A stretch of DNA of 64,000 nt from Nitrosopumilus sp. (GTDB lineage: Archaea; Thermoproteota; Nitrososphaeria; Nitrososphaerales; Nitrosopumilaceae), in NCBI GenBank assembly GCA_965214775.1, contig OZ243974.1:1152001-1216000 (forward strand). The letters run 5' to 3'. Shown one piece after another: positions 7,401-36,300 of the stretch (position 1 is the first letter of the stretch; each line of letters opens with the position of its first letter). The position numbers were made by a program, and so were the translations under genes. The notes beneath the pieces are model-generated. The model worked only from the letters and a program-made list of their open reading frames with translations. It had not been told where the DNA came from and did no database searches.

Positions 7401-10400
7401 GGCACCGGCACCACACAGGGCACGGTAACGGTAACAGTCACGCGCGACAACAACGATCCCGTTCTGGGTACCATAGGAGACCAGACGGCTACTCCGGATG
7501 TTCAATTAACCATAACGCCGACTGTAACTGACGCCGATCCTACCGATACGCACACGTACTCGATATCTCGCGGCACGCTGCCGGCAGCCGCCGCATTTAC
7601 TGCATCTGACGGCACCCTCGTCTGGACGCCCGTATCGGCTGATGCCGGGCAGACTCACGAGGTTACAATAACGGTAAATGATGGCCGCAGCGGTACCGAC
7701 TCGGAGACATTTGACATAGTTGTGCCCGCCGCAATCACGCTTACCCCGGTCGGGAGTCTGGACGACAGCCCGCAACTGCTACTTCACGGCGCCTTTGGCG
7801 TGGACGTATTCACGATAGGCAGCAACACCTACGCGGTCGTCGCCTCCGAATACGATGACGGCATCCAGCTAGTTGACATCACCAACCCTGCCAGTCCTGC
7901 AGCCGCCGGCAGTCTGAACGATACGGGTTCCACGGTGCTTGACGGCCCCCAGGGCGTGGACGTCTTTACGATAGGCAGCAACACCTATGCGGCAGTGGCC
8001 TCCTTCGTCGATGGCGGCATCCAGATCATAGACATCACCAACCCTGCCAGTCCTGCAGCCGCCGGCAGTCTGACCGATACGGGTTCCAGTGTGCTTGACG
8101 GCGCCCGCGATGTGGACGTCTTTACGATAGGCAGCAACACCTACGCGGCCGTCGTCTCCCTCGACGAAGACGGCATCCAGCTAGTTGACATCACCAACCC
8201 TGCCAGTCCTGCAGCCGCCGGCAGCCTGGACGATACGGGTTCCACGGTGCTTGGCGGCGCCCGCGGTGTGGACGTCTTTACGATAGGCAGCAACACCTAT
8301 GCGGCAGTGGCCGCCGAATACGAAGACGGCATACAACTAGTGGATGTCACCAACCCTGCCAGTCCTGCAGCCGCCGGCAGCCTGAAAGAAGGTCAAGGTG
8401 GCTCTCAGGACCTTGACGGTTCATATGCTGTGGACACCTTCACGATAGGCAGCAACACCTACGCAGCAGTGGTTGGCGAAGCAGATAACGGCCTCCAGAT
8501 TGTAGACATCACCAATCCTGCCAGTCTCACGGCCACGGGAAGTATAGGGGATACCGGCACCACGCGGCTTAAAAGTCCACGCGGTGTGGATGTATTCACG
8601 ATAGACAGCAGTACTTATGCAATCGTTGCATCCGCCCATAACAACGGCATCCAGCTAGTTGACATCACCAATCCTGCCAGTCCTATCCAAGCCGGGAATC
8701 TGGGGGATACGGGCTCCTTGGAGCTCCTCAGTCCACGCGGCGTGGCCGTCTTTACAATTGGACAAGACGTCTACGCGGCAGTTGCCGCCTTTGGCGACCA
8801 CGGCCTCCAGCTGGTGAGGCTGGGCGGGGAGGCAGAGACGCCCAACAGTCTGCCGGTGGCACCTGACGAGACGGCAACCACCGCAGAGGATACGCCCATT
8901 ACCATAACGCCTGCAATATCGGATCCGGACACATCGGATACCCCGATGATATCGGCAGTAGAGAACCCGCCAAACGGGACTGTTATACATGATGATACCA
9001 CCATAACTTATACGCCTGATCAGGGCTATACGGGCACCGATACGTTCGGATATACGGTAACTGATGGCACCGACTCTGTACAAGGCACGGTAACGGTAAC
9101 CGTCACACGCGACAACAACACCTCAAAGGCAATATCTGACCTGCTAAGCATCTACCACGCAAGGCCAGACCTGCAGGCAGCATACCCGGAGGCCGGCTCC
9201 GGCGACGATATGACGAGACTACTCAGATGGGCATGGCAGTACGGAATTGTTGACTATCCTGCAGACCCCAACGGCCCACATGCAGTCCTGGGCCCGCACG
9301 CGCACACCTATGCACTGCTCTCCATATACGACGCAAGGCCCGACCTGCAGGCAGCATACCCGGAGGTCGTGGCAGGCGATCGTGACGCACTGACTGTCTG
9401 GGCGCGCGACTGGGGAATCAACGACTATCCGGATGATCCCGTGGGTCCTGCCGCAGTCCTGGGCCCGCACGCGCACACCTATGCACTGCTCTCCATATAC
9501 GACGCAAGGCCCGACCTGCAGGCAGCATACCCGGAGGTCGTGGCAGGCGATCGTGACGCACTGACTGTCTGGGCGCGCGACTGGGGAATCAACGACTATC
9601 CGGATGATCCCGTGGGTCCTGCCGCAGTCCTGGGCCCGCACGCGCACACCTATGCACTGCTCTCCATATACGACGCAAGGCCCGACCTGCAGGCAGCATA
9701 CCCGGAGGTCGTGGCAGGCGATCGTGACGCACTGACTGTCTGGGCGCGCGATTGGGGAATCAACGACTATCCGGATGATCCCGTGGGTCCTGCCGCAGTC
9801 CTGGGTCCGCACGCGCACACCTATGCACTGCTCTCCATATACGACGCAAGGCCGGATCTGCAGGCAGCATACCCGGAGGTCGTGGCAGGCGATCGTGACG
9901 CACTGACTGTCTGGGCGCGCGATTGGGGAATCAACGACTATCCGGATGATCCCGTGGGTCCTGCCGCAGTCCTGGGTCCGCACGCGCACACCTATGCACT
10001 GCTCTCCATATACGACGCAAGGCCGGATCTGCAGGCAGCATACCCGGAGGTCGTGGCAGGCGATCGTGACGCACTGACTGTCTGGGCGCGCGATTGGGGA
10101 ATCAACGACTATCCGGATGATCCCGTGGGTCCTGCCGCAGTCCTGGGTCCGCACGCGCACACCTATGCACTGCTCTCCATATACGACGCAAGGCCGGATC
10201 TGCAGGCAGCATACCCGGAGGTCGTGGCAGGCGACCACACAGCACTGACTGTCTGGGCGCGCGACTGGGGAATCAACGACTATCCGGATGATCCCGTGGG
10301 TCCTGCCGCAGTCCTGGGTCCGCACGCGCACACCTATGCACTGCTCTCCATATACGACGCAAGGCCGGATCTGCAGGCAGCATACCCGGAGGTCGTGGCA

Positions 10401-10499
10401 GGCGATCGTGACGCACTGATCAAGTGGATACGGGATTACGGGATAACTGAATATCCGTCTGTCCTAGGCCCATATGCACACATCTATGGTAGAGACTAA
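4413..10499 (+). CDS. Giant secreted surface protein 1: signal/TM segment, three LVIVD-like repeat blocks (probable beta-propellers), Ig/cadherin-like domains, 8 C-terminal 57-aa RPDL repeats
   Basis: Hydrophobic segment ending EAYA|Q; ~50-aa 'TYAAVAS..DDGIQIVDITNP' repeats; 'TTAEDTPVTI..YTPDQ.Y.GTDTF.YTV.DG' Big_9-like domains. The true start may be somewhat downstream. Confidence 0.9.
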   Translation: MRPDILAGCRQLRTVRRGMHMHMRHRARTESVACGLPHLRCPSHRASASAPVLYLVLIAAAVSCLAVAGGLQEAYAQSSVEVSPVGDLENNNSRLLDGATGVDVFTIGDRTYAVVAARDDDGIQIVDITNPASPTAAGKLGDDNSRLLDGAHGVAIFTIGDRTYAVVAARFSDGIQIVDITNPASPAAAGNLADTEGDNELLLDGARGVDTFTIGSKTYAAVASFIDDGIQIVDVSNPASPAAAGNLGNTGSLELDGATGVDVFTKGGKTYAAVASWLDDGIQVVDVSNPASPAAAGNLGDRGIRELDGAIGVAAFQRGSKAFLAVASVDDDGFEIVDVTSPHGPTAAGRLDDDGSRLLDGAYGVDVFTIGSRTYAAVASSVDDGIQIIHVSDPTAAHTVGKLGDNNSLELDGATDVDVFTIGGGTYAAVVSQNDDGLQMVIIGKQGAPEFASATLDDNTGTMTITFSEVIDVSDTDLSKIYVSDAGQTNGVSMSGATFDDAVPDSETISITLTRAQLDGIAAMRVPQLDIAAGAVEDHAGHHIGTARDKTVTTASPDSPIPAGRLPDGAGLYLEKSRGVDTFTIGSNAYAVAVSSTEDGLQIVDITNPARLTPAGNMRDAHNSLLDGARAVDTFTKGSKTYATVASHAEDGIQIVDVSNPASPKPTGNMGVYASSRLLDGANGVSNFKIDGGTYAAVTSQYDGGLQIIDVTKPNNPAESGRLEDSTSRLLEDTSSVDTFRRGGSTYAVVASWGDDGLEIIDVSNPSSPAETGRLADDNDVLLRGIRAVDAFEAGGSAYVAVASHGENGLQIVDVSDPANPSPAGNLVDASNRLLGGASGVEIFVVDQAIYAAVASQSDDGLQIVDVSDPDNPAEAGSLRDGPGLSLDAARDLSVFTRNGDTYAVVASDTEGLQTVKLAEAPNSPPVAPDETATTAEDTPVTITPAISDPDTSDTPVISAVVDPPNGSATHDDDTITYTPDQDYEGTDTFEYTVSDGTGTTQGTVTVTVTRDNNDPVLGTIGDQTATPDVQLTITPTVTDADPTDTHTYSISRGTLPAAAAFTASDGTLVWTPVSADAGQTHEVTITVNDGRSGTDSETFDIVVPAAITLTPVGSLDDSPQLLLHGAFGVDVFTIGSNTYAVVASEYDDGIQLVDITNPASPAAAGSLNDTGSTVLDGPQGVDVFTIGSNTYAAVASFVDGGIQIIDITNPASPAAAGSLTDTGSSVLDGARDVDVFTIGSNTYAAVVSLDEDGIQLVDITNPASPAAAGSLDDTGSTVLGGARGVDVFTIGSNTYAAVAAEYEDGIQLVDVTNPASPAAAGSLKEGQGGSQDLDGSYAVDTFTIGSNTYAAVVGEADNGLQIVDITNPASLTATGSIGDTGTTRLKSPRGVDVFTIDSSTYAIVASAHNNGIQLVDITNPASPIQAGNLGDTGSLELLSPRGVAVFTIGQDVYAAVAAFGDHGLQLVRLGGEAETPNSLPVAPDETATTAEDTPITITPAISDPDTSDTPMISAVENPPNGTVIHDDTTITYTPDQGYTGTDTFGYTVTDGTDSVQGTVTVTVTRDNNTSKAISDLLSIYHARPDLQAAYPEAGSGDDMTRLLRWAWQYGIVDYPADPNGPHAVLGPHAHTYALLSIYDARPDLQAAYPEVVAGDRDALTVWARDWGINDYPDDPVGPAAVLGPHAHTYALLSIYDARPDLQAAYPEVVAGDRDALTVWARDWGINDYPDDPVGPAAVLGPHAHTYALLSIYDARPDLQAAYPEVVAGDRDALTVWARDWGINDYPDDPVGPAAVLGPHAHTYALLSIYDARPDLQAAYPEVVAGDRDALTVWARDWGINDYPDDPVGPAAVLGPHAHTYALLSIYDARPDLQAAYPEVVAGDRDALTVWARDWGINDYPDDPVGPAAVLGPHAHTYALLSIYDARPDLQAAYPEVVAGDHTALTVWARDWGINDYPDDPVGPAAVLGPHAHTYALLSIYDARPDLQAAYPEVVAGDRDALIKWIRDYGITEYPSVLGPYAHIYGRD
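9130..10496 (+). repeat. 171-bp (57-aa) tandem coding repeat, 8 units
   Basis: Near-identical units HAHTYALLSIYDARPDLQAAYPEVVAGDRDALTVWARDWGINDYPDDPVGPAAVLGP. Confidence 0.97.
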
Positions 10500-10512
10500 A
10501 TGTCTTAAAACG

Positions 10513-10642
10513 GGGGTTGTCGCCTAATTCCACCTGCCGGACTCAATCCGCACATTTTTCTGAATCTCCACCATTTTTGCACGCCTAGTCCGGATAACAT
10601 CATATGATTTTCAGAAATTCTGATGAATTAGGCGACAACCCC
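10513..10642. mobile_element. 130-bp MITE of the GGGGTTGT (IS5-like) family
   Basis: TIR GGGGTTGTCGCCTAATTC; 9-bp TSD CTTAAAACG; the empty site is present downstream of the paralogue at ~22216. Confidence 0.93.
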
Positions 10643-12655: not shown

Positions 12656-13555
12656 TTACTTGTTCTTTAAAATCATAAACACAAAGTCACTATCGATTAC
12701 TTTTTCTTTAATTAACAACTGCTCTGTGTTGTATAGCAGTTTTAGAATCAACGAGTCTTTTTCGTTGCTAGGATCAAAATTTCCTACAATACAGTCCATC
12801 GCAAATTGCAACAGCGTCCCGCCATACTTTCGTTCGTAAACTACTTTGAAATTTTCTTTTAGCAATCTTGTTATTTCTCCTGATCTGATGGACTCTGAAG
12901 GATCATCTTTTTCAATCACTGCCGGTTTTTCTCTGTACGTGCTTTTTCTAATTCTTCCATCAACCACGCTTGTTTTGTAATTATCCGTCAAGTTACTCAA
13001 AACCCAATTCATTAATTCGACTTGTTTGTCGGTAAACTGATATCGTGACGGCCCAACATACTCATTTATTATGAACAGCCCCTCTGGCTTGAGGGCCCGT
13101 CTTACCTCCCCGAACAGCTCTTCTAATCTCTCTACGTGATGTATCGAATGCCATCCAAAAATTGCATCAAACGACCCTTTTTCTAATTTTATATTGTTAA
13201 GATTCGCCTCTTCATACTCTATGCTTTGAGCCAGTCCGTCTCTTGCAGCTTCCTTTTTTGCGACTTTGATTGCATCTGCTGATATGTCGACTCCCTTACA
13301 CCGTTTTGCGGTACCGTTGGCCGTGATTATTCTTTCTAAACGGCCGCTGCCTGAACCTAGGACTAGGGCACTGTCAAACTCCCCGAATTCTTTCAAAAAT
13401 GCAAATATGTCTACTGCCTCATTGCCTGTTATGGCTTTGTTGATACACTGAATTAGGGTGGGATGTGCACTCCAATGTTTTCGGGGCATGTCTGTTAGCG
13501 ACTCGTTTGCGCATTTTCCCCAAACGTCGTTGACTTTTTCCTTGTACGAGGTCAG
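12656..13555 (-). CDS. Class I SAM-dependent methyltransferase (start uncertain)
   Basis: VLGSGSG, GVDISADAI, FDAI..HSIHHV and ALKPEG motifs. The ORF extension to 13741 runs into an IS relic. Confidence 0.85.
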   Translation of the reverse strand: MTSYKEKVNDVWGKCANESLTDMPRKHWSAHPTLIQCINKAITGNEAVDIFAFLKEFGEFDSALVLGSGSGRLERIITANGTAKRCKGVDISADAIKVAKKEAARDGLAQSIEYEEANLNNIKLEKGSFDAIFGWHSIHHVERLEELFGEVRRALKPEGLFIINEYVGPSRYQFTDKQVELMNWVLSNLTDNYKTSVVDGRIRKSTYREKPAVIEKDDPSESIRSGEITRLLKENFKVVYERKYGGTLLQFAMDCIVGNFDPSNEKDSLILKLLYNTEQLLIKEKVIDSDFVFMILKNK

Positions 13556-13669
13556 TCCATCTCCCCCCCCGGCAAGCGTGAAAATAGCCGGCGTGCAAAT
13601 TCGTGTCGAGTTGCAAGGAACGCGACCCGTACTTTTGACGTGCTGTCCATTTGAATCATTGCCTGATCT

Positions 13670-14500
13670 CAGTAGATGAAAATGTACCCTCCTTTTTAAA
13701 TGTCTGATTGTTTTGACAGTAGATGAAAATGTACCCCGCAAATCCGTCTAACCGGGATCGTGCAGCCGCCGCCCAGCCCCGATCCTGCCTGCATCTGGCA
13801 CAGAGGCAGCACGAATACAGGATCACAACATACATGAGTCAGCAGTGTCATGACGCGGGTCTTTGGATCGGCCGAGTCCCTCATTGTCAGCCATATGTTG
13901 CATACTGCAAGCTACACGTAAAACAAAAGCATCCGCATGACAGGATTCCTGCTGACGGTCTGTGGCCTGACGCTCTTGGCACAGCGATATCCCGTCTCGA
14001 TACCCCACCTATTTTGATACTCTTTTGTCACATAGTGAAACAACTGCCGGTAGCCGTGGCAGTGTACCGTGGTCGCAAACACGGGCATCTGTCAAAGATG
14101 TTATTTGCCGTGGACTTTGGGATCTTCCTGATGACCAGAGTGAACGTGAATCTCCTGCCGTCTGATAGCTTTATGGCATACCTTGATACTGCCTTTCTCT
14201 TGTCGCAGGCACGCTGTACGATGGCCTGCTTTATTTATCCCCGGCGTCTTGACTGCAGAGAGGTGATCCGAAATTAGAAACCGTGCGAATTTTTCAAGTA
14301 ATTTCACAGATAATCTGTATTTTGTTGGTGTTTTGAGCCGTTTTATGCAAATTCGTTCACAAATAATCAGAGTTTGCTAATTTCGAATCAACTCTCAGGC
14401 ATGATGAATGCAAACCCGGCGCCGTATATGACATCCATTACGTCTACTGAAAAGAACCCCCTGTCAAGCAGGGTGACGCTTTGCCTTGACCCAGGCCTGG
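13670..14500 (-). pseudogene. Degraded ISH3/IS4-like transposase relic
   Basis: LLDRGFFSVDV on the minus strand at ~14440-14470; CAG...TGAAAATGTACCC TIR-like ends at 13670 and 13718. Confidence 0.65.
14259..14395. mobile_element. 137-bp MITE (AGAGGTGATC family), copy 2
   Basis: Homologous to 11061-11197; TSD CAG. Confidence 0.88.
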
Positions 14501-14530
14501 ACGTAATGCCCAGATCGGCGCATTTTTGGA

Positions 14531-15290: not shown

Positions 15291-15475
15291 CCTTTTTATA
15301 CTGACAAGCCAACTTTTCTGGGCAGCGTCTTATGATCAGATGCCCTTGCAGACATGGCTGAGCATCAGACATTTGTGACCAGTCATTGCAGGATTGGAAT
15401 TTGCTGGGGTGATCCATTATCGGCATCCTAGTCAAAGAATTCCGATGGAAATCTTTTTTGATCTTGCCTGGTTGA

Positions 15476-19100: not shown

Positions 19101-22100
19101 ATCGTGATGACCCCGGTCGGGAATATAAGTGACGACCACTCGTTACTGCTTGATTCTGCCCGCGCAGTGGATACGTTTACGATAGGCAGCAGGATCTACG
19201 CGGCAGTGGCGGCCTCATCTGACGACGGTCTCCAGCTGGTCGATATCTCCGATCCCTCCAGTCCCGTCGCCGCCGGGCATCTTGAGGATACCGAGGGCAG
19301 CAACGAGCTGCTGCTTGATGGTTCCAACGACGTGAACGTCTTTGTAATCGGCAGCAGGACATATGCCGCAGTGACCACCGCATCTGACCACGGCCTCCAG
19401 ATTGTAGACGTCTCCAATCCCTCCAGCCCGACTGCCGCCGGAAAACTGGCAGACAACAGCTCTAGGGAGCTTAAAGGCGCCACAGGGGTGGCCGTCTTTA
19501 CGATAGGCGGCAAGACCTACGCGGCAGTGGCGGCCTCATCTGACGACGGTCTCCAGCTGGTCGATATCTCCGATCCCACCAACCCGACTGCCGCCGGAAA
19601 TCTGGGGGATACCAACTCTAGGCTGCTTGACGGTGCCTCTGACGTGGCCGTCTTTACGATAGGCGGCAAGACCTACGCGGCAGTGGCCTCATCTGCCTCT
19701 GACGACGGTCTCCAGCTGGTCGATATCTCCGATCCCACCAACCCGACTGCCGCCGGGCAGCTGGCAGCTACCAAATCTAGGCTGCTTGACGGCGTCGAGG
19801 GCCTAGACATCTTTACAACGGGTGGCAAGACCTACGCCGTCGTGACAGCCAGATTTGACGACGCCCTCCAGATTATAGACATCACCGATCCCGACAAACC
19901 TGTAGCTGCAGGGAACCTGGTGGACGGCGGCAACCTGCGGCTTGGCTCTCCCTTTGACGTGGATGTCTTCACGCTAGACGGCAAGACCTACGCCGCAGTC
20001 ACGTCGTTTGCTGATGACACACTCCAGATCATAGATGTCACCAATCCTGCCGGTCCGGCCGCCGCCGGCAGTCTGAGAGACGGAGGTTCTCTGAATCTTA
20101 ACGGCATCGATGCCGTGAACGTTTTTACAGTCGGAGCGGACACCTACGCTGCAGTCGCCGCCCAACTGGATGACGGTCTCCAGATGGTGAGGCTGAGCTC
20201 ATGGGGGACATCCAACACCCCACCGGTGGCACCATCCGCGACGGCAACCACCGCAGAGGACACGTCTGTAACCATAACTCCGAACATATCGGATCCGGAC
20301 ACATCAGACACCCCGAGGATATCGGCAGTAGAGAACCCGCCCAACGGGACTGTTATACATGATGATACCACCATAACTTATACGCCCGATCAGGGCTATA
20401 CGGGCACCGATACGTTCGGATATACGGTAACTGATGGCACCGACTCTGTACAAGGCACGGTAACGGTAACCGTCACACGCGACAACAACACCTCAAAGGC
20501 AATATCTGACCTGCTGAGCATCTACCACGCAAGGCCGGATCTGCAGGCAGCATACCCGGAGGCCGGCTCCAACAACGATATGACGGGACTACTTAGGTGG
20601 GCATGGCAGTACGGAATTGTTGACTATCCTGCAGACCCCAACGGCCCGCATGCAGTCCTGGGCCCGCACGCGCACACCTATGCACTGCTCTCCATATACG
20701 ACGCAAGGCCCGACCTGCAGGCAGCATACCCGGAGGTCGTGGCAGGCGATCGTGACGCACTGACTGTCTGGGCGCGCGACTGGGGAATCAACGACTATCC
20801 GGATGATCCGGTGGGTCCTGCCGCAGTCCTGGGCCCGCACGCGCACACCTATGCACTGCTCTCCATATACGACGCAAGGCCCGACCTGCAGGCAGCATAC
20901 CCGGAGGTCGTGGCAGGCGATCGTGACGCACTGACTGTCTGGGCGCGCGACTGGGGAATCAACGACTATCCGGATGATCCGGTGGGTCCTGCCGCAGTCC
21001 TGGGCCCGCACGCGCACACCTATGCACTGCTCTCCATATACGACGCAAGGCCCGACCTGCAGGCAGCATACCCGGAGGTCGTGGCAGGCGATCGTGACGC
21101 ACTGACTGTCTGGGCGCGCGACTGGGGAATCAACGACTATCCGGATGATCCGGTGGGTCCTGCCGCAGTCCTGGGCCCGCACGCGCACACCTATGCACTG
21201 CTCTCCATATACGACGCAAGGCCCGACCTGCAGGCAGCATACCCGGAGGTCGTGGCAGGCGATCGTGACGCACTGACTGTCTGGGCGCGCGACTGGGGAA
21301 TCAACGACTATCCGGATGATCCGGTGGGTCCTGCCGCAGTCCTGGGCCCGCACGCGCACACCTATGCACTGCTCTCCATATACGACGCAAGGCCCGACCT
21401 GCAGGCAGCATACCCGGAGGTCGTGGCAGGCGATCGTGACGCACTGACTGTCTGGGCGCGCGACTGGGGAATCAACGACTATCCGGATGATCCGGTGGGT
21501 CCTGCCGCAGTCCTGGGCCCGCACGCGCACACCTATGCACTGCTCTCCATATACGACGCAAGGCCCGACCTGCAGGCAGCATACCCGGAGGTCGTGGCAG
21601 GCGATCGTGACGCACTGACTGTCTGGGCGCGCGACTGGGGAATCAACGACTATCCGGATGATCCGGTGGGTCCTGCCGCAGTCCTGGGCCCGCACGCGCA
21701 CACCTATGCACTGCTCTCCATATACGACGCAAGGCCCGACCTGCAGGCAGCATACCCGGAGGTCGTGGCAGGCGACCACACAGCACTGACTGTCTGGGCG
21801 CGCGACTGGGGAATCAACGACTATCCGGATGATCCGGTGGGTCCTGCCGCAGTCCTGGGCCCGCACGCGCACACCTATGCACTGCTCTCCATATACGACG
21901 CAAGGCCCGACCTGCAGGCAGCATACCCGGAGGTCGTGGCAGGCGACCACACAGCACTGACTGTCTGGGCGCGCGACTGGGGAATCAACGACTATCCGGA
22001 TGATCCGGTGGGTCCTGCCGCAGTCCTGGGCCCGCACGCGCACACCTATGCACTGCTCTCCATATACGACGCAAGGCCCGACCTGCAGGCAGCATACCCG

Positions 22101-22211
22101 GAGGTCGTGGCAGGCGATCGTGACGCACTGATCAAGTGGATACGGGATTACGGGATAACTGAATATCCGTCTGTCCTAGGCCCATATGCACACGTCTATG
22201 GTAGAGGCTAA
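16122..22211 (+). CDS. Giant secreted surface protein 2 (paralogue of 4413-10499) with 10 C-terminal RPDL repeats
   Basis: Signal-like N-terminus ending EVHA|Q; three LVIVD-like blocks; two 'FVSA.LD..TG' spacer domains; one Big_9-like domain; 57-aa repeats. Confidence 0.92.
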   Translation: MAVKRQRPPRRSPAGTPALYLAFIAAAVSGLAVAGSLQEVHAQNRIEVIPAGMLSDHSSWLLDGATGVEVFIIGSKTYAAVIAYQDDGLQIVDISNPSDPYNLAKLENNGSRLLDAPYGVDIFKIGSKTYAAIASRFSDGLQIVDISNPSSPAAVGKLGDNNSRLLDGAHDVDVFTIGSKTYAAVASLEDDGLQIVDVSNPSSPTAVGKLGDNNSRELDGARGVDVFTIGSKTYAAVAANYDDGLQIVDVSNPSSPTAVGKLGDNNSRELDGAIGVAVFTIGSKTYAAVASFEDRGLQIVDVSDPSSPAAVGKLENSNTNLLDGATGVDVFVMAGRTYAAVASAFDNGLQIVDVSNPSSPTADGKLKDNNSRVLGGAVAVDIFMMGDRTYAAVASDSDDGLQLIQLRDRIKPGFVSAALDENTGLMMITLDEPIDTSDTDLSKLYVSDAGRTNEVVLTGATFDDTVPDLDTITFTLTNTQLDDIIPMATPQLDIAAGAVEDLAANAIDAAPDNAITTASPDSPIPSGRLTDSPQVHLDKSRSVDVFTLGGKIYAVAVSSTEDAIQIVDISSPDRPRARGSLDTADSPTLLLDGARAVDTFTTGGKIYAVVASHADDGIQIVRVSDLTHPQPAGRLDDNKSRLLDGANGVNVFRIGTGIYAAVTSQYDGGLQIIDVTNPDSPTEAGKLEDGTFRLLDDTTDVDTFRVGGSTYAVVSSWVDKGIQIVDVSNPDSPRESEVLKDNNDLLLDGIRAVDAFEVGGTAYAAVASHTDGGLQIIDVSNPASPAAAGKLADTDDLLLGGASGVEIFRVGKAVYAAVASQYDGGLQIVDVSDPDNPTAAGSLEDGPELSLAAARNLSVFTHGGDLYAAVVSDTEGLQIVKLAEDDLEFVSATLDAATGKMTVTFTKTIDVSDTKLSKMYVSDAGKTNEVVLSGATFDKTTRDSETISLTLVPAQLDDITRMAAPQLDIAAGAVSDVSGNDIAAASDNPVTVAIVMTPVGNISDDHSLLLDSARAVDTFTIGSRIYAAVAASSDDGLQLVDISDPSSPVAAGHLEDTEGSNELLLDGSNDVNVFVIGSRTYAAVTTASDHGLQIVDVSNPSSPTAAGKLADNSSRELKGATGVAVFTIGGKTYAAVAASSDDGLQLVDISDPTNPTAAGNLGDTNSRLLDGASDVAVFTIGGKTYAAVASSASDDGLQLVDISDPTNPTAAGQLAATKSRLLDGVEGLDIFTTGGKTYAVVTARFDDALQIIDITDPDKPVAAGNLVDGGNLRLGSPFDVDVFTLDGKTYAAVTSFADDTLQIIDVTNPAGPAAAGSLRDGGSLNLNGIDAVNVFTVGADTYAAVAAQLDDGLQMVRLSSWGTSNTPPVAPSATATTAEDTSVTITPNISDPDTSDTPRISAVENPPNGTVIHDDTTITYTPDQGYTGTDTFGYTVTDGTDSVQGTVTVTVTRDNNTSKAISDLLSIYHARPDLQAAYPEAGSNNDMTGLLRWAWQYGIVDYPADPNGPHAVLGPHAHTYALLSIYDARPDLQAAYPEVVAGDRDALTVWARDWGINDYPDDPVGPAAVLGPHAHTYALLSIYDARPDLQAAYPEVVAGDRDALTVWARDWGINDYPDDPVGPAAVLGPHAHTYALLSIYDARPDLQAAYPEVVAGDRDALTVWARDWGINDYPDDPVGPAAVLGPHAHTYALLSIYDARPDLQAAYPEVVAGDRDALTVWARDWGINDYPDDPVGPAAVLGPHAHTYALLSIYDARPDLQAAYPEVVAGDRDALTVWARDWGINDYPDDPVGPAAVLGPHAHTYALLSIYDARPDLQAAYPEVVAGDRDALTVWARDWGINDYPDDPVGPAAVLGPHAHTYALLSIYDARPDLQAAYPEVVAGDHTALTVWARDWGINDYPDDPVGPAAVLGPHAHTYALLSIYDARPDLQAAYPEVVAGDHTALTVWARDWGINDYPDDPVGPAAVLGPHAHTYALLSIYDARPDLQAAYPEVVAGDRDALIKWIRDYGITEYPSVLGPYAHVYGRG
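20500..22208 (+). repeat. 171-bp tandem coding repeat, 10 units
   Basis: Same unit as 9130-10496; internal units nearly identical to each other. Confidence 0.97.
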
Positions 22212-27195: not shown

Positions 27196-27858
27196 TTGTC
27201 TGTTGCACTAAAAAAAATGGCAAAACCGCCACTGCTGGCCTCTGTTATTGCATCTGCCGTACTGATGTTTTTGGCGCCTGTCTCCGGATCATCTCTTGGC
27301 GTGTATGCGCAGGATGTCTCACCGCCGGGGAAGGGGCCCGGCGGAAACGATACAAGAACTGCCAGCCTTTGCTCCTCAGAGTCCGAATGCGTGCTAATTG
27401 CAAAGAACCATACGGGCAAGGACTCCAAAATATCCCAGTCGCTGCAACACCTCATCTCTAGGCCAGACATGCGGGGGGATGACCTTACCAGATCGGCGAT
27501 GGATACCGGGGCAATGGACGGTGAAAAGATACCGGTAATCATCCGTATAAAGTCCGGCTCAGAAGGGTTTGCATTTCCAAATGATCTCGGAATAGATGTG
27601 GTCGGAACATCAGGTCTTGGCATACATGCAGACATACCGGCCTCAAGCATACTGCGGCTGGCACAATATGACGAGATAGACCGGATAAGGATGGCGCCTG
27701 CGATGATCGAGGGGCAGACAGACAATCCGGTGACATCAGGCAACGATCTGCAGTTCGTGTGGGACTTGTCATATCTTCTGGTGCTGTTGATCCCCGCTGC
27801 CGTCGTCCTAGCAGTATGGCAAGCTAGAAGGGGAAAAAGGAGGATTGTCACGGCATAG
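27196..27858 (+). CDS. Secreted, C-terminally anchored protein resembling a subtilase prodomain
   Basis: Signal peptide; KISQSLQHL...IPVIIRI...IHADIPASSILRLAQYDEIDRIR; C-terminal TM helix plus RRGKRR. Overlaps the S8 gene. Confidence 0.75.
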   Translation: MSVALKKMAKPPLLASVIASAVLMFLAPVSGSSLGVYAQDVSPPGKGPGGNDTRTASLCSSESECVLIAKNHTGKDSKISQSLQHLISRPDMRGDDLTRSAMDTGAMDGEKIPVIIRIKSGSEGFAFPNDLGIDVVGTSGLGIHADIPASSILRLAQYDEIDRIRMAPAMIEGQTDNPVTSGNDLQFVWDLSYLLVLLIPAAVVLAVWQARRGKRRIVTA

Positions 27859-30184
27859 GCCCGCCATACTGGCATCATCGCTTGCAGCGACACCACTACT
27901 GATGCTGATATTCATGTTGTCACTCGGCCAACTCTATGCCATTGCACATGGCCAGTCCGTGACAAGCCAGGGCGTATACACCGTAGAGTCGCACATAGTA
28001 AACAGTTTGGGAAACAATGGCAGCGGGATCAAGGTGGCAGTGATAGACACCGGGTTTGACGTGGACGACGCGGAGATATCATCTAACATAGCGGAGGCCA
28101 GATCGTTTCGCTCAGACGGCGACATTACGGCGGGGGGACGCACCAATCACGGGACTGCGACCGCGCAGATAGTCGTAGACGTCGCCCCCGGAGCCGAGCT
28201 GTACCTTTACAACGTCGGATCCGTGCCAAACATGATAAGGCTGATCGACTATATCATGGCAAGAGGGGACATTGACATCGTCAGCCTGTCCGTGGCATGG
28301 TGGGGCGTAGGGCCGTATGACGGGACCAGCGAGCTCTCACAAAAGGTGAGCGAGGCGCAGGACAGCGGGATACTGTGGGTATCCTCGGCCGGAAACTTTG
28401 CAGACAGTCACTGGGAGGGCACGTTCTCAGACGCAGACGCAGACGGGTTTCACAACTTTGGAACTATGGATGAGACAATATCGATCCTCGCCGAGGAGGG
28501 CTCCGTGGTGGAGCTGGAGCTCACATGGGACGACGCGTGGGGCCGGTCTGCCAACGACTATGAGCTGCGTCTCTATGACGATAACCTGAACCTGTTGATC
28601 TCCTCCATTACTACACAGGACGGCGATGACGACCCGCTTGAAACAATACAGTACCTTATTGGATCCGACGGCGTATACAACATAGTGATAGAGCGCTATT
28701 CAGGCGAGGCTAGGAACCTAGAGCTGTTCAGCTTTGGACATCCCCTTGCGGAGCACAACGTATCCGGGGGCAGCGTGATAATCCCGGCTGATGCTGCAGG
28801 CTCAGTTGGGGTAGCAGCCGTCGGTCACGACACGGAGCTGCTAAAGTCATACAGCTCGCGCGGACCCACAAACGACGGCAGGACAAAGCCGGACATCGCT
28901 GGGCCGACGGATGTGACCACGAGCGTGTACGACTCCTTTGGAGGCACGTCGGCTGCGGCCCCCCACGTCGCAGGGGTAGCAACTCTGATAAAGTCGGCCA
29001 ACCCGGCATACACACCTGACCAGATCCGGTCGATTCTGGAAGACACCACGAGGAACCACCACGAAAAGAACAACGAGGACGGAACCGGGCTGGCAAACGC
29101 AGTAAACGCCGTGGTCATGTCTGACGGATCAGCAAAGACAATGTCTGACCTACTGGGTATCTATTATGCCAGGATCGATCTGCAGGCCGCATATCCTGAG
29201 GCTGCCTCCGGCGACATGGCCGGGCTGGTCAGGTGGGCCTGGCAGTACGGAATTGTCGACTATCCCAGGGATCCGGCAGGCCCGCATGCCGTCCTGGGCC
29301 CGCACGCGCACACCTACGCACTGCTACATGTTTGGAACCAGAGGTCGGATCTGCAGGCAGCATATCCTGAGGCTGCCTCCGGCTACATGGCTGGGCTGAC
29401 GGTCTGGGCGCGCGACTGGGGAATCACCGATTATCCGGCAGACCCATTCGGCCCGCATGCCGTCCTGGGCCCGCACGCGCACACCTACGCACTGCTCTCC
29501 ATATACGACGCAAGGCCGGATCTGCAGGCCGCATATCCTGAGGCTGCCTCCGGCGACATGGCCGGGCTGGTCAGGTGGGCCTGGCAGTACGGAATTGTCG
29601 ACTATCCCAGGGATCCGGCAGGCCCGCATGCCGTCCTGGGCCCGCACGCGCACACCTACGCATTGTCCATCATCTATGACGCAAGACCAGATCTGAGAGC
29701 CGCATATCCCGATGTCGTGGCAGGCGATCGCGCAGCACTGACTGTCTGGGCGCGCGACTGGGGAATCAACGACTATCCGGATGATCCGGTGGGTCCTGCA
29801 GCGGTTCTGGGCCCGCACGCGCACACCTACGCACTGCTCTCCATATACGACGCAAGACCGGATCTGCAGGCAGCATATCCTGAGGCTGCCTCCGGCGACA
29901 TGGCCGGGCTGACGGTCTGGGCGCGCGACTGGGGAATCAACGACTATCCGGATGATCCGGTGGGTCCTGCAGCGGTTCTGGGCCCGCACGCGCACACCTA
30001 CGCACTGCTCTCCATATACGACGCAAGGCCGGATCTGCAGGCCGCATATCCTGAGGCTGCCTCCGGCGACATGGCCGGGCTGACTGTCTGGGCGCGCGAC
30101 TGGGGAATCAACGACTATCCGGATGATCCGGTGGGTCCTGCAGCGGTTCTGGGCCCGTACGCACACGACTATGGTGATGATTAA
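27845..30184 (+). CDS. Secreted S8 (subtilisin-like) serine protease with PPC-like insert and 6 C-terminal RPDL repeats
   Basis: Catalytic motifs VAVIDTG, NHGT, SAGN, KPDIAGP and GTSAAAPHVAG. Confidence 0.93.
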   Translation: MSRHRPAILASSLAATPLLMLIFMLSLGQLYAIAHGQSVTSQGVYTVESHIVNSLGNNGSGIKVAVIDTGFDVDDAEISSNIAEARSFRSDGDITAGGRTNHGTATAQIVVDVAPGAELYLYNVGSVPNMIRLIDYIMARGDIDIVSLSVAWWGVGPYDGTSELSQKVSEAQDSGILWVSSAGNFADSHWEGTFSDADADGFHNFGTMDETISILAEEGSVVELELTWDDAWGRSANDYELRLYDDNLNLLISSITTQDGDDDPLETIQYLIGSDGVYNIVIERYSGEARNLELFSFGHPLAEHNVSGGSVIIPADAAGSVGVAAVGHDTELLKSYSSRGPTNDGRTKPDIAGPTDVTTSVYDSFGGTSAAAPHVAGVATLIKSANPAYTPDQIRSILEDTTRNHHEKNNEDGTGLANAVNAVVMSDGSAKTMSDLLGIYYARIDLQAAYPEAASGDMAGLVRWAWQYGIVDYPRDPAGPHAVLGPHAHTYALLHVWNQRSDLQAAYPEAASGYMAGLTVWARDWGITDYPADPFGPHAVLGPHAHTYALLSIYDARPDLQAAYPEAASGDMAGLVRWAWQYGIVDYPRDPAGPHAVLGPHAHTYALSIIYDARPDLRAAYPDVVAGDRAALTVWARDWGINDYPDDPVGPAAVLGPHAHTYALLSIYDARPDLQAAYPEAASGDMAGLTVWARDWGINDYPDDPVGPAAVLGPHAHTYALLSIYDARPDLQAAYPEAASGDMAGLTVWARDWGINDYPDDPVGPAAVLGPYAHDYGDD
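29140..30175 (+). repeat. 171-bp tandem coding repeat, 6 more divergent units
   Basis: Same family as the repeats in the two giant proteins. Confidence 0.95.
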
Positions 30185-30200
30185 GAGGCACATGTTATGT

Positions 30201-30320
30201 CAGTCTTCCCAGAAGTGCCACATCGAATCATCCTAGGCTCGAAACAATTCAAATGAGAATGCCTGCAGATCCGCATGTCGTCTACTGCACCACCACAGTC
30301 GGTTACTTTTGGGAATGCTG
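30201..30320. mobile_element. 120-bp CAGTCTTCCC MITE; supplies the stop codon of the giant GT
   Basis: TIR CAGTCTTCCCAGAAGT; homologues at 37583, 46529, 52599 and 55996 (partial). Confidence 0.8.
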
Positions 30321-33300
30321 GTCTGCGTCCCGTTGCACCTTGGCAGTTTCTAGTGCTGCCGACGGAATGCTGGCTTCTTTTGTCAGTATCTGCGTCAGGG
30401 TATCGCGAACTAGTTCCGGGGAATAGTGGGAATTGGCAAAGGCAAGGGAGTTTTTTGAGAGCGTATTCCACAAGGATTCATCAGTGTATGCTGAGATCGC
30501 CCTGTCTACAAATTCGGCAGGGTCGTCTCCAACCAACAGGATCTTGTCGTCATCTGACATACCCTCTGCCCCTATCGACGTCGTAACAACAGGCAACCCA
30601 TACGCAAAGCTACTAGTGATCTTTCCCTTAATCCCGGCCCCATATGTCAGAGGAACCAGCATGATCCTGCAGCGGTTGAGGTGTCCCTCTATGTCCGGTA
30701 GGTGTCCGAGAAAGGCGACGTTTTTGGTACCGGTGCACAGATCCCTGATCTTTTTGGACGCATTGCTTCCTATAACGTACAGCCTGACATCGGGCAGGCG
30801 CTCTCTGATCTGTGGGAATATGCGACTTGTCAGATATTCAAGGGAATCTACATTTGGTGGGTGTGTAAACCCTCCCACAAACAGGAAATCCTTTCGTTTT
30901 TCAAACGGTACGGGACTCTTTTGTGGAATCTGCAGCGGCGGAATTACGGCGACCGACAGGCCGGGATCCTCGTTTAGCAGGAATCTTGCCTCCTTGAGGC
31001 TACGGACTATGACCATATCTGACTTGCCGATAAGAGACAATTCGCCTTTGCTGTTCCTGCTTGCAGCAGTTATCTGTGATGGGTCTTGGGACAGTACGGC
31101 CATCCTGTACTCGCGGACAAAGTGAAGATCCGTAGTGTCGTAGACTATCTTGCATCCTGGCGCGTGTCTTTTGAGACGGTCAAAATATCTTGCGGTGATA
31201 TGAGGCCTTGAGGCAAAACAGACGTGAAAGGTCTCCTTGCGTCCTTTCAAAAACTCCTCAAAGTCGCGGTTTCCGTAGACGACCTCGATTCCCTTCTGCT
31301 GCAGCTCCGTAGCATATGGCTCTGTTCTGGCCAAGTTATCTGGCCAGAAGGTGACGTTGTGGTTCATGGATGCCAAGATTGAGATCACATAGTACGCAGT
31401 AAGCGAGCCCGCGTCGCGATCGTACTCTGGGACGAAGTGATCTATGTAGAGTATGTTGAGGCCGGCAGTGCGGTTCCTCTCAAAGAATACGTTCTTTGGC
31501 GAGTCTGGATGACGGCTTTGTATGATCCCTTCCCATTTTTTCATGTATCTATCCTTGTTTGTGACTTGGAATGACTTTATTCCCTGTGAGGTGTCGGTGC
31601 CTTGGGTCCTGCCTTCGTGGTGGATGAAACAGGCCATGGGCTGGTACAGGATGCTGTATCCCTTTTGCCTGATGGCCTGGCAGAGGTCATTGTCCTCCCA
31701 GTAGGCAACGTCGTATCCGGAGTCGAACCCTCCGTTCTCCTCGAAGATCTCCCGCCTGACCATCAGACATGCTCCAGAACAGTAGTCGACCTCCCTGACA
31801 AAGTTATACTCGGCCTTGTCCGGGTCGTCGCCTCTCCCGTAGTTCCATACGTTTCCGTTCCCCCAGACGATGCATCCGGCTTCCTGCAGGGTTCCGTCGG
31901 CAGACAGCAGCTTGCCTCCCACGGCACCCGTCCCCTCATTCAGGGCCAGCTTCAGCATGGCCTCCAGCCAGTTCGGCGAGGCCACCTCCATATCGTCGTT
32001 TAGAAAAACCAGATATTCGCCCCGGGCACTCTTGGATGCATGGTTGTTGATTTTTGCAAAGGAGTATTCGCCATCATAAATCAGAACCTTGTGCCTGATC
32101 CCGTCAAGGTATCGCCGCATCTCCGAATCTCCATCTTTGTTGTTTGTGACAATGATGATCTCATAGTTTTTGTATGTCGTCTTTGACTCTATAGACTCTA
32201 GGTTCTTTCTGAGATAATCGGTTTGGTTGAGGGTGGGGATGATTATGCTGACCTTTGGATTTCTTGGAAGCGTGAGGATTTCTGCCGATCCTATCTGAAT
32301 GTGCTCTCTCAGATCTTCGTCAGGCTCGGCGGGGTACTCGTTGCAGAATATCCTTGAGTTCAATTTGGGATCATCAAGTTTGATCGTCTCCGAGTATCGC
32401 CTGACTCTTTCGGACAGGATGTTGGTGGCAACATCCAAGGAGGGGGGGGGGGAAGGCTGCTCCAAAGTGGCAAAACCCATGTCTGAGCTTCTAGAGCCTG
32501 AGCTGTTGCAACTAAGAGACTGAAGGAAACCGTTGAGAATTTTCTCACCTACCTTAAGAGAATGGTATCTATCAAAATACGTTTTTCCATTTTGGCTGAG
32601 CCTTAACCAAAGATTCTCATCATCAAGAAGAGTGAAGACTGCATCGGCAAACTCTTCTTCATTGCTTGCGACAAGAACATCTTTTTTGCTTTTTAATTCA
32701 GTGCCGGCAAGTCCTAGAGGCGTCGTAATGACTGGAACGTTGAAGTTTAAAGACTCTAAGATTTTACCTTTTATTCCACCTACCACCATCATATATGCAA
32801 TGGTGGCAACAGCTCCGTCGTAATAAGGGAAAAGATCCTTTACAAAACCGGAAAAATGGATGTTAGAATTTTCCATTTTTGTTAGTTCTTTAGGCGGGTC
32901 ATTGCCTACAAAATACATCTCTATTGCAGGCATTTTTTTGAGAATAAGTGGAAATACGTCATCGATGATTTTTTTCGCGGACACCACGTTTGGGGTGTGA
33001 GAAAACCCACCCACAAAAAGAAGATACTTTCTCTCATTGAATTTTTTTACTGGCCTGGTATTTAAATGGCGAATGTCAGGAAGCAGTAAAAGTTTTTCGG
33101 AGGGAACAATTTTTTGTAACAGATTTATTTCTCGCTGGGTAATCACCATTAGGTGATCAGAGATATTGGTGAAATCTCTACCAAATTTAGTTAGTGTGTC
33201 TAGTGCTTTTTGATCATCGTCAACTTGTATGTTTTTATCTTGACTAACCAACCTGCAAAATCCGTAGAGATCATCAATATGGAGTAGAATTTTTGTTTGG

Positions 33301-36300
33301 GGGGAAGTAGTTTTAGACTGATGAAGATATTGTTTGCATTGAACAGAAGACATTCTGTTTGTATTGATAACTATCAAATCATAGTAATTTTTTCGATCTT
33401 CAAGCAAGACGGACACATCAAAATTTTGTGCGGGGATTATTTCAATCCCCAAACGTCGTAATCCGTCATTATATTCTGAGGCGCCATAGTGGCTTACAAA
33501 AAGTGTAATTTTTGAATTTAGCTGAGAAAGCAATTTTAGAATATTATACACGCGAAGATCTCCTCCGCTCTTATCGTGTTCTGTTATCCACCCATCAATT
33601 ACAAGAATTCTAACCGAATCGCGCATGTCCCGGGCAAGTAAAACGTTAGAGTCCGAAGGGATGTGCTTTGTAGAAAGGGCTTCCTTCCAAGTTTTCTGGA
33701 ATTTGGGGCGGTTGATTATCTCGAATCGCTTTGTACCGGAGGGATTTTGCGGATCCCTGGTTGAAGAAATTCCCTCATAGTGAACTATCGAAGAGAACGG
33801 AGTATACATGACACGTAGTGAGTTTTTGTGTGCGTTGAAACAAAGATCAACATCTTCATAATATGCAGGAATGTATTTTTCGCTAAATTTGCCCAATTTC
33901 TCAAAAATACTTTTCTTTACTAGTAAACATGCGCCAGAAACATAATCGACATCTCTAACAAAATTATATTCCGGTTTTAAATGATCATCATTTCTGCCAT
34001 ATGCTCGTGCTGATCCGTCATTCCAAATTATTGAACCTGCTTCCTGCAGACTGCCGTCAGGGTACAAGAACTTGGGTCCGACAATTCCAACTTTCTCATA
34101 ATGTTCAAAAATATCAAGTAAAGACTCTAACCAATTTTTTAACACAAGAGTGTCGTTGTTTAAAAACAACAGGTATTTTCCAACCGCATGGCATGATGCA
34201 AAATTATTTCCGGCAATAAACCCCAAATTAGATTTTAAATCAAACGATTTTGTATTTTTAATTTGTTTTAAAAGAAGCTTACTTGCGTTTTCAGTACAGC
34301 CGTTGTTGATTAGTATTATCTCATAAGGGATTTTGGTGTTATGTAAAACAGACGCAAGGCAATTAAATGTATATGCGGCTTTGTTATGATTTAGTATAAT
34401 TATAGAAACAATAGGCGAATCATGTTTTGGAAATGTTAGGACAGAGTTAGTGTTTGCGTATTCTAATTCTTCTCTAAATTGTTCAGCTACATTACTGCCT
34501 TCTATTTTGGGAATAAGAACCGGTTTGAATGTAAGTACTGAAGTTAAGCTAGATTTGTTCTTTTTAGCTATGAATTCCTCAATTAATTTTTTTAGACCAT
34601 GGGTTTTGGTGATGTACAAGCTAGATCTCATCACGCGTAAAAACTCGCCACTCCTAGTATTTGGCTTGAAAGTTCTATCTAGACTATTTGTAAATCCATT
34701 AAGAAATGAGAAAATCAGTGAGCTGTTGATTTGTTCTAATTCATATGCCAACGAATTATATTTTGATTGTAATTCTGCCAACTCGGAGTTTTTGTAAGTA
34801 ATCTGCTCTTTTAGAGAAAGTACACGCAAGTTTTTCGCGTCAACCTCTGCCTGTAGCCTCTTGACCATAGTGCCCAGCTCGGCCTTGTCGCCCTCCAGCG
34901 TGTCGACCTGCCTGCCCAGCTCGGCCTTGTCGCCCTCCAGCGTGTCGACCTGCCTGCCCAGCTCGGCCTTGTCGCCCTCCAGCGTGTCGACCTGCCTGCC
35001 CAGCTCGGCCTTGTCGCCCTCCAGCGTGTCGACCTGCCTGCCCAGCTCGGCCTTGTCGCCCTCCAGCGTGTCGACCTGCCTGCCCAGCTCGGCCTTGTCG
35101 CCCTCCAGCGTGTCGACCTGCCTGCCCAGCTCGGCCTTGTCGCCCTCCAGCGTGTCGACCTGCCTGCCCAGCTCGGCCTTGTCGCCCTCCAGCGTGTCGA
35201 CCTGCCTGCCCAGCTCGGCCTTGTCGCCCTCCAGCGTGTCGACCTGCCTGCCCAGCTCGGCCTTGTCGCCCTCCAGCGTGTCGACCTGCCTGCCCAGCTC
35301 GGCCTTGTCGCCCTCCAGCGTGTCGACCTGCCTGCCCAGCTCGGCCTCCCTGTCTTGCAGCTTGGATGCCAGTGAGGAAGATTCTTCCGCTAGCCGAAAT
35401 GAAGAAAGCAGTGATTCGTAATAGTGCTTGTATTTTCTTAGTTTCACCTTGTGAGAATCCGTGGAATCATCTGAAATTGCCCATTCGAGGAGGCGTGTGT
35501 AATCTCCGTTCTTGACTTCCGGAAAGGCCTTCCGCAGATCCGGTCTCAAGCGGTATATTTTCAATAGTTCGTCTAGCTCGATCTTGTAGCTCTCCAGATC
35601 GATCCGGCTTGGCTGTTGATCAGATATACTGGCCTCTTCAACTCGCATTTTCTGCATCTGTGATCTGATAAATTCACTTGAATTTTCTTCATGTGTGTTT
35701 TTATAGCAAATTTGCAACAGATCAAGAGCAGCTGCGTCGGTTGTGATAATCAGCGAGAGCTCTAACCACACCATTGCATTTTCAAATTTGCCACTGTCCA
35801 TCAACACATTGCCCTGCAACAGGTATCTTGCGTGATCGCTTTTATCGTGTTCAATCATTCGATCTAAGATCTTGGAACACTCGTGGTATTCCTGCAAGTT
35901 ATACAGGCAGTTTGCACATCCCTCCAAGGCTGGAATGTATCCCCAATCTGTTTCAAGTATGCCCCTGTAAATTCTTAGTGCATCTGTCCACTTTGATGAC
36001 TCTGCCAGCTTGTCTGCGTTGTAAAGATCTAGCAACACTTGGTTCTTTGTTAGACAATACTTTGTAGTTATATGTTTATAGACAAAGTCCTTGTTTTTCT
36101 CCATCAGTATGCTGGAGTTGCGCGTCGAGCCCTGCGTGTTGATCCAGTATTCTCCAGTGGCTTTTGGAACTCGCACAAAATAGGCGTGCTTGGAAAACCT
36201 CCTTAGAACGTCCCAGTCCTCCCAAAAATCTAGTGCCTCATCATACCTCTCAACCTTGGACAGCTCCTTTCTGTGCACCACCGCAAAATTGGGTATGAAG

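Follow-up and report, generated by a model that had tools for sequence, protein, structure and literature searches.

Beyond transmembrane (TM) and lipid anchors, little is known of how exoenzymes and adhesins are retained on the surface of archaea without wall polymers. The present analysis concerns a stretch of 64,000 nucleotides from Nitrosopumilus sp. (assembly GCA_965214775.1, contig OZ243974.1, positions 1,152,001 to 1,216,000; hereafter the window). In it, a repeat of about 57 residues, here termed the RPDL unit, is found in tandem at the C-termini of three secreted proteins and as a single copy inside a giant cytoplasmic glycosyltransferase (GT). An initial annotation proposed that the repeat tethers the secreted proteins to the glycan made and exported by the same locus. 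The RPDL unit is defined here as a so far unnamed all-helical domain family of archaea and bacteria. Judged by the proteins that carry it, the module probably holds proteins onto surface glycans.

The RPDL unit and its carriers

Translation and motif indexing place 57-residue units in tandem at the C-termini of two adhesin-like proteins (A and B) and an S8 protease (C), with eight, ten and six copies, respectively (Table 1). These copy numbers agree with the initial annotation and were recovered by hidden Markov model (HMM) searches as well. Unit spacing is 57 residues, the first unit having 58, and the stop codon follows 4-5 residues beyond the end of the array in all three proteins. Tandem Repeats Finder reports 171-nt periods at 9282-10419, 20652-22131 and 29177-30166. 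Each protein has a single N-terminal hydrophobic 19-mer region, and hydropathy over the whole proteins shows no hydrophobic segment at the C-terminus of A, B or C, as the initial annotation had stated for C-terminal TM segments. The N-terminal propellers of A and B match the NCBIfam family choice-of-anchor B (TIGR04312) at 151.1 and 173.5 bits, above its curated cut-off of 100. This family is defined by C-terminal anchors that differ between organisms.

The arrays differ in their apparent age. The final ~1.6 kb of A and B (8800-10499 and 20170-22211) are 95-97% identical, with unit-to-unit identities of 95-100% in DNA, and the sequences suggest a recent duplication or gene conversion of the array ends. 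By its unit divergence, the array of the S8 protease is older than those of A and B. Unit copy number is labile, since a near-identical homologue of B in a related genome (P0005) has eight units and B has ten. A syntenic locus is present in a metagenome-assembled genome labelled Nitrosopumilaceae archaeon, where the first unit is 100% identical.

Units from Nitrososphaeria, such as those of the array at 29144-30181, contain a Pro/His-rich insertion (DYPxDPxGPxAVLGPHAHTY) that is peculiar to this lineage and missing from the units of Thermoplasmata and of enzymes. The 24 array units of the window that bear it would expose dozens of surface histidines, and a metal-binding side function, for example for copper, is conceivable. 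Metal binding by the His-rich insertion (GPHAHTY) was rejected as the function of the family, the positions being unconserved outside Nitrososphaeria.

The fourth carrier in the window is the GT, in which Pfam recognises four GT2 and two GT1-type modules and hydropathy detects no hydrophobic segment anywhere along the 2418 residues. A homologue of the unit had been noticed there at ~35420-35580. An HMM built from 12 non-redundant window units and run against 1175 six-frame window pieces matched the GT at E 4.1e-8 (next piece, E 1.2), the match spanning model positions 2-32 only, or half a unit. With an HMM derived from 355 units of other organisms, residues 662-721 scored 58.9 bits (E 1.9e-17, positions 5-66 of 73), a value inside the range of the 24 array units (44.8-64.5 bits). 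Besides the array units and the GT, no six-frame piece of the window reached E <= 1 with this model. The GT segment is homologous to the array units over their full length, and the earlier sighting stands as a highly significant similarity, with the unit at 35397-35576 on the minus strand.

In the GT, the unit immediately precedes a putative coiled coil. Evidence for the coil consists of weak coiled-coil family matches and a 14-residue repeat at residues ~700-950, between the GT2-GT2 and GT2-GT1-GT2-GT1 blocks. The repeat, ELGRQVDTLEGDKA, is encoded by a perfect 42-nt array of 11.4 copies (34871-35347, minus strand, 100% identity). Such an array should expand and contract readily, and if the coil acts as a ruler, the chain length of the glycan would shift accordingly. 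The distal block of the protein comprises two GT2 modules of unassigned role, the TPR region and the unit, and no recognised terminator (kinase, methyltransferase or Kdo-transferase) is present at the distal end. A search for other giant synthases with this unit region, confined to lengths of 1329-4232 residues and thus weak evidence, returned the window's own protein alone. Three families in the precomputed Pfam list of the GT (PF27720, PF28175 and PF23649) were neither reported by the Pfam copy used nor found in the literature searched. They are unlikely to represent the unit because they are listed on no array protein or other unit-bearing enzyme.

A Wzm/Wzt-type exporter pair is encoded divergently from the GT gene. 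In NCBIfam the pair is matched best by Wzm/RfbD and TagH/Wzt, both under the equivalog cut-offs, and a domain scan found no Wzt_C carbohydrate-binding domain on the 248-residue Wzt. On the other side, the S8 gene lies tail-to-tail with the GT gene across a gap of 119 bp.

Table 1. Features of the window, numbered from its first nucleotide
Feature	Position	Strand	Remarks
Adhesin-like secreted protein A, 2028 aa	4413..10499	+	signal-like segment, LVIVD propellers, Big_9/cadherin-like domains, C-terminal RPDL array
RPDL array of A, 8 units, aa 1575-2028	9135..10496	+	internal units 95-100% identical in DNA
Adhesin-like secreted protein B, 2029 aa	16122..22211	+	architecture as in A
RPDL array of B, 10 units, aa 1462-2029	20505..22208	+	
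Protein C, secreted subtilase, Peptidase_S8 at aa 59-415	27845..30184	+	C-terminal RPDL array
RPDL array of the S8 protease, 6 units, aa 434-779	29144..30181	+	units 67-96% identical in DNA, more diverged
Giant multi-GT, 2418 aa, cytoplasmic	30303..37559	-	GT2-GT2-TPR-RPDL unit-coiled coil-GT2-GT1-GT2-GT1
Coiled-coil region of GT, about aa 722-950	34710..35396	-	candidate molecular ruler
Single full-length RPDL unit of GT, aa 662-721	35397..35576	-	enzyme subtype; immediately N-terminal of the coiled coil
TPR region of GT, aa 519-600	35760..36005	-	ahead of the unit
Wzm-like ABC-2 permease	37748..38524	+	divergent from GT; ABC2_membrane domain
Wzt/TagH-like ABC ATPase, 248 aa	38524..39270	+	ABC_tran domain only
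Class I methyltransferase	12656..13741	-	no RPDL unit
Sulfotransferase	46939..47850	+	no RPDL unit
PMT + Laminin_G_3 membrane protein, 866 aa	47957..50557	-	no RPDL unit
Transposase/integrase genes	458-3852, 11484-12518, 23007-25861, 40288-40989, 45559-45999, 56259-57245, 58957-59379		

The unit is defined by the signature L-x-x-v-Y-x-x-R-x-D-L-q-x-x-[FY]-P ... L-x-x-W-a ... l ... y, which the window units share. The R.DL motif occurs in 345 of 377 units, and the tryptophan and the proline reach frequencies of 0.92 and 0.82. This strongly conserved set of polar and aromatic residues (R, D, Q, F/Y-P, W) is common to cytoplasmic and extracellular copies and to archaea and bacteria. Neither Pfam-A (24,736 models) nor NCBIfam has a family that spans the unit in the window proteins or in 92 carriers from elsewhere. 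Even at E <= 10, the GT unit alone and 27 two-unit sequences gave only scattered weak Pfam hits, including SLT_2 at 8e-5 in two of the 27. No PDB sequence matches the unit (best E 0.21), the ESM Atlas gave no usable match, and full-text searches within one literature library found no description of the module.

An AlphaFold model of two units, built from 27 sequences, predicts an all-helical fold in which one long helix runs from the last part of a unit into the first part of the following one (predicted local distance difference test score, pLDDT, 80; predicted TM-score, pTM, 0.60). Foldseek found no solved analogue of this model, the best match having E 7.1 and a TM-score of 0.22. A four-unit AF2 model from 9 sequences was set aside at a pLDDT of 55. 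The remark of the initial annotation that the module has no named family is borne out in Pfam-A and NCBIfam, and no characterised domain resembles the unit by sequence or fold.

Exhaustive searching with a profile yielded 722 proteins at E <= 1e-3, an upper bound because the profile (635 positions) also kept N-terminal columns of P0008 and P0010. The totals of this search (722/179/59) overstate the number of unit carriers and were corrected by local rescans, which found at least one unit in 120 of the best 150 matches, the other 30 not being carriers. A second, word-indexed search gave 100 proteins, unnamed or annotated as 'hypothetical protein' or 'YncE family protein', with organisms, where given, mostly from Thermoplasmata. 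All 62 of its new proteins carry units, and in 52 of them the array ends within 40 residues of the C-terminus. The impression of a tiny family from a single-unit word-indexed search (6 proteins) proved false in view of the larger profile search.

Carriers outside the close relatives of the window (115 proteins) were classed by a hydropathy heuristic and Pfam. Thirty have one N-terminal hydrophobic segment and 54, many of them fragment-like, have none; the median is 4 units in both classes. Eleven multi-TM carriers have a median of 2 units and include two PMT_2/GT-C proteins with C-terminal units. The remaining 20, also with a median of 2, are cytoplasmic glycan enzymes, namely GT2, GT1, RgpF, TOD1_MUCI70, CmcI-type and other methyltransferases, and a sulfotransferase. 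In such enzymes the unit is present in one to six copies, often beside a coiled-coil ruler and Wzm/Wzt genes. These class sizes derive from a score-ordered list, in which multi-unit arrays are favoured and enzymes with one unit, the window GT being an example, are too sparsely represented.

In Nitrososphaeria and Thermoplasmata, C-terminal arrays are found on secreted proteases, propeller or adhesin-like proteins and array-only proteins. Their cargo includes Peptidase_S8, Pro-kumamolisin, Thermopsin (9 proteins), beta-helix, PKD, HYR and FG-GAP domains, as well as NHL/propellers, SBP_bac_5, cupredoxin, GH-like and ice-binding-like domains. Array-only secreted proteins consist of a signal-like leader and 4-10 units without cargo (the metagenome proteins P0157-P0171 and P0183). 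A cysteine pair in the last unit of 14 proteins fits an extracellular location. P0008, an array protein encoded on the same contig as the window, has a 'GDSGAP' motif recalling S1 proteases, with no Pfam support. Across the family, the cargo is of the kind that surface-anchoring repeats typically bear, namely proteases, adhesin-like propellers and hydrolase-like domains, and glycan-assembly enzymes carry units as well. Among the Thermoplasmata, three consecutive genes (L005:3139-13945) encode proteins of ~1100-1300 residues that each end in 4-5 units, at least one of them with NHL/propeller domains.

The closest architectural analogue of the window GT is P0113, in which a unit, a ~500-residue coiled coil, a conserved 'RxGEFLR' linker, GT2, GT1 and a further unit follow one another. 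The window GT corresponds to the core of P0113 with GT2-GT2-TPR placed before it and a second GT2-GT1 pair after it.

Candidate ligands and roles

The distribution of the family favours glycan recognition and surface retention. One conserved signature recurs in three settings, on exoproteins outside the cell, on GT-C enzymes outside and on synthases and modifying enzymes inside, which points to a reader of a small ligand, most likely a glycan. The reading we favour, tentatively and at somewhat less than even likelihood, is that the RPDL unit recognises a glycan or glycoconjugate as its ligand, with arrays that retain exoproteins on a glycan-rich surface. On exoproteins, the 2-10 units of a C-terminal array would provide multivalent, avidity-based and non-covalent retention on an S-layer glycoprotein, an exopolysaccharide or a lipoglycan. 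The proteins retained here would be the two propeller/cadherin-like adhesins and the subtilase. On glycan-assembly enzymes in the cytoplasm, one copy or a few may bring the enzyme onto the lipid-linked chain as it grows, and in the window GT the unit would do so at the putative ruler's distal end, beside an exporter that lacks a carbohydrate-binding module (CBM). The unit at the distal junction, together with a Wzt that has no CBM, fits a chain-reading role without proving it. The glycan as ligand, the anchoring by arrays and the chain sensing by the GT unit are all features that we infer from sequence. A sorting-signal role was rejected because the unit also occurs on cytoplasmic enzymes.

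Such surfaces would include S-layer glycoprotein or exopolysaccharide in ammonia-oxidising archaea, whose adhesin location is stated to be unresolved (PMC12448741). They would also include the lipoglycan and glycoprotein exposed by most Thermoplasmatales, which are described as lacking an S-layer (PMC12448462).

A number of observations weigh against this reading, or against its application to the window. By sequence neighbourhood, 15 of the 20 nearest units of the GT unit are enzyme-borne, compared with 39 of 376 overall (hypergeometric P = 1e-12), and the best-placed local array unit ranks 51st of 377. On this basis the GT unit is of an enzyme subtype and not of the local array type. The fourth array protein of the contig, P0008, is encoded outside the window. 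Four Thermoplasmata array genes, which encode NHL/propeller proteins with 4-5 C-terminal units and three of which lie in tandem, have no Wzm/Wzt or unit-bearing GT within 10 kb, with one plain GT2 nearby. The adhesin and protease genes have a GC content of 58-62% and the GT-wzm-wzt stretch one of 38-53%, a contrast that hints at separate histories, and the locus is interrupted by transposases.

More general objections concern the nature of the unit. No carbohydrate- or cell-wall-binding family is similar to it by sequence or fold, and small helical repeats bind proteins more often than sugars. The score-ordered carrier list is biased toward multi-unit arrays. In P0107 and P0134 the units are accompanied by a TM segment at the C-terminus, so the unit cannot serve for anchoring alone. 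Short-form matches of 17-25 bits also follow the thioesterase domain of nonribosomal peptide synthetase (NRPS) proteins at seven Acidimicrobiia loci (L006, L008-L011, L015 and L016, including a small open reading frame in L006). These matches share signature residues beyond the retrieval pattern (Y at -3, L-x-x-W), and if they are genuine, the module would extend beyond glycan enzymes.

The specific link between the three secreted proteins and this synthase, as first proposed, is not supported by these comparisons. Arrays also occur away from GT loci with wzm/wzt, as in the four Thermoplasmata genes, and in the window only the S8 gene adjoins the synthase, A and B being 8-26 kb away across transposases. 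In a genome scan of 17 loci, a small and biased sample because retrieval used the narrow pattern R[PI]DL[QR]AAYP, Wzm was found near a unit-bearing enzyme in L003, L013 and L017, with an adjacent Wzt carrying Wzt_C in L013. L002 has a GT cluster only, which the short contigs of L007 and L014 lack. That the arrays and the synthase both bind the polymer made by this locus is, on these sequence relationships, decidedly unlikely.

The main rival explanation takes the unit as a protein-protein docking or oligomerisation module, which would bring polymerase, terminator and modifying enzymes together in a complex inside the cell and let arrays self-associate or bind S-layer protein outside, as a coat or matrix. 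The predicted all-helical fold, with its long helix bridging consecutive units, would suit such a role, as would the adjoining coiled coils, the array-only secreted proteins and the possible NRPS copies. GTs, methyltransferases and sulfotransferases of one pathway kind share the unit, and O-polysaccharide assembly is described (PMC11231755) as proceeding via multiprotein complexes with recruitment sites. Adhesins of ammonia-oxidising archaea have also been suggested to lie within the S-layer (PMC12448741). We nevertheless consider docking somewhat unlikely. The GT alone in the window has a cytoplasmic unit, hence no docking partner is present there. The signature is also the same inside and outside the cell and across archaea and bacteria, which a common small ligand explains more easily than co-evolving protein partners.

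A role at the membrane appears less probable still, and we regard it as very unlikely. Here the unit would bind the membrane surface or a polyprenyl- or dolichyl-phosphate head group, tethering synthases inside and exoproteins at the outer leaflet. Soluble GTs of ABC-transporter-dependent pathways must work at the membrane, and the GT of the window contains no hydrophobic segment of its own. The secreted proteins likewise have no other anchor, and the conserved arginine and aromatic residues could touch a phosphate or the membrane interface. However, in both the window GT and P0113 the unit is placed at the coil end away from the polymerase GTs, which in known ruler systems is the membrane-distal, terminator end (PMC11231755). 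Moreover, units are carried by proteins that are already membrane-bound, either GT-C or TM-anchored (P0081, P0129, P0107 and P0134). Passive helical stalks or spacers that project catalytic or adhesive domains, with the single enzyme copy as a structural linker, would fit the extended model with continuous inter-unit helices and the variable, recently expanded repeat number (P0005 against B; near-identical units), but this is very improbable, given that a spacer at the extreme C-terminus projects nothing, that array-only proteins have nothing to space and that the tryptophan and proline of the signature are too conserved for a linker.

The glycan-recognition reading can be extended to a single reader domain on both sides of the membrane. 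At the tip of the ruler the unit would capture the non-reducing end of the polymer, and the arrays would read the exported glycan. The unit would then replace the missing CBM of Wzt or even the terminator, and in P0113 the unit alone holds that position. Arrays would hold proteases, adhesins and array-only coat proteins on the exported glycan. We regard this extension as quite doubtful. If true, it would represent a general form of non-covalent surface display in archaea without wall polymers (Nitrososphaeria, Thermoplasmata) and would explain the attachment of the biofilm adhesins of ammonia oxidisers.

The family is of relevance beyond this extension. A widespread but unannotated C-terminal repeat, borne by secreted proteases from four families, by adhesin-like propellers and by proteins made up of arrays only, is a testable candidate for the missing anchor, and the unit could serve as a portable display tag. 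Units at the tip of coiled-coil rulers would constitute an unrecognised non-catalytic module in the scheme of ABC-transporter-dependent assembly. Even with a protein ligand, the family definition would annotate several hundred 'hypothetical' proteins.

The surrounding island

The window is a transposase-rich island of glycan and surface-protein genes. Transposase and integrase genes (DDE_Tnp_1, DDE_Tnp_4, IS66, DDE_3, rve, IS110) are unusually dense, some of them seemingly truncated, and the GC content, ranging from 38 to 62% across the window, marks the locus as a mosaic. Sugar genes at 42055-45459 and 59836-62019 encode an HddA-like kinase, GmhA, a 4,6-dehydratase-like and a GmhB-like protein. 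Their matches, mostly under the NCBIfam equivalog cut-offs, suggest a GDP-heptose or 6-deoxyheptose route. An RmlA-type thymidylyltransferase exceeds its cut-off and is adjoined by an epimerase. Farther downstream of the heptose-type genes lie a sulfotransferase, more GTs and this RmlA-type gene. Heptose has been reported in a Thermoplasma N-glycan (PMC12448462).

Neither the sulfotransferase nor the class I methyltransferase of the window has an RPDL unit, and such enzymes elsewhere (P0094, P0111, P0114) do. The PMT and Laminin_G_3 membrane protein was considered as a further carrier and rejected, no units being found in it. P0010, from another organism, has the same length as this protein and a comparable layout, with three RPDL units at its end. 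Upstream of adhesin B, a gene-poor stretch (14277-16122) contains a twofold repeat of a 167-bp unit with 100% identity (14944-15279).

Comparison with known assembly systems and surface repeats

The synthase resembles WbbB, WbdD and ORF6(O7), which are likewise multi-GT proteins with adjoining wzm/wzt genes; their long central coil, with catalytic modules split across it, would have its counterpart in the putative coil of the window GT. In the window the exporter genes at 37748-39270 directly adjoin the synthase gene. In the systems described, the coiled coil is a chain-length ruler whose distal end bears the terminator, and the terminated chain is recognised by a CBM that Wzt carries (PMC11231755). 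The same source reports a TPR-like bundle ahead of the coil in ORF7(O4) as well. The window system differs in being archaeal, in having six GT modules and a CBM-less Wzt, and in bearing an RPDL unit at the junction in place of a terminator. Neither a recognised distal terminator nor a CBM on Wzt, both characteristic of WbbB/WbdD-type systems, was found in the window locus.

Wzt_C, the carbohydrate-binding module of Wzt in ABC-transporter-dependent O-antigen export, is a beta-sandwich on the transporter, whereas the RPDL unit is helical by its model, stands on the synthase and is also extracellular. The likeness would lie in function: Wzt_C is a cytoplasmic reader of glycan ends within an assembly and export machinery (PMC11231755), and in the window the synthase carries an RPDL unit and its Wzt no Wzt_C. 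The two are not simple alternatives because L013 has both.

Among surface-anchoring repeats, the S-layer homology (SLH) domain is similar in several respects. Its units of ~55 residues are largely helical, are arranged in tandem at a terminus and share a short conserved polar motif. Through SLH domains, S-layer proteins, proteases and hydrolases are bound non-covalently to a secondary cell-wall polymer. The domains usually occur in threes, in contrast to the 2-10 RPDL units, and to our knowledge they are not found inside cytoplasmic synthases, as RPDL is. Furthermore, the hosts of RPDL are archaea without SLH-type wall polymers. The SLH profile matched neither A, B and C at E <= 0.01 nor the 27 two-unit sequences at E <= 10, no PDB fold match was obtained, and scans of the window's open reading frames turned up no pyruvyltransferase family (CsaB-type, the SLH partner).

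The CWB2 and choline-binding repeats of Firmicutes and the pseudomurein-binding repeats of Methanobacteriales also form arrays, by which proteases, adhesins or lysins are kept on a surface polymer; the pseudomurein-binding repeat is an archaeal precedent for surface-holding arrays. No Pfam match to these repeats was found in the window proteins, the carriers or the two-unit sequences. Their folds are alpha/beta or beta-hairpin, and the RPDL module is predicted to be all-helical. DUF4214 (PF13946) is a helical domain of ~70 residues, of unassigned function, found on secreted or S-layer-like proteins and on GT and methyltransferase enzymes, a dual distribution resembling that of RPDL. It was not among the weak Pfam hits at E <= 10 for the 27 two-unit sequences and the GT unit, in a comparison of sequences against profiles rather than of profiles with each other. 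In functional terms, the RPDL family would be a non-homologous addition to the known repeats for non-covalent surface anchoring and glycan reading.

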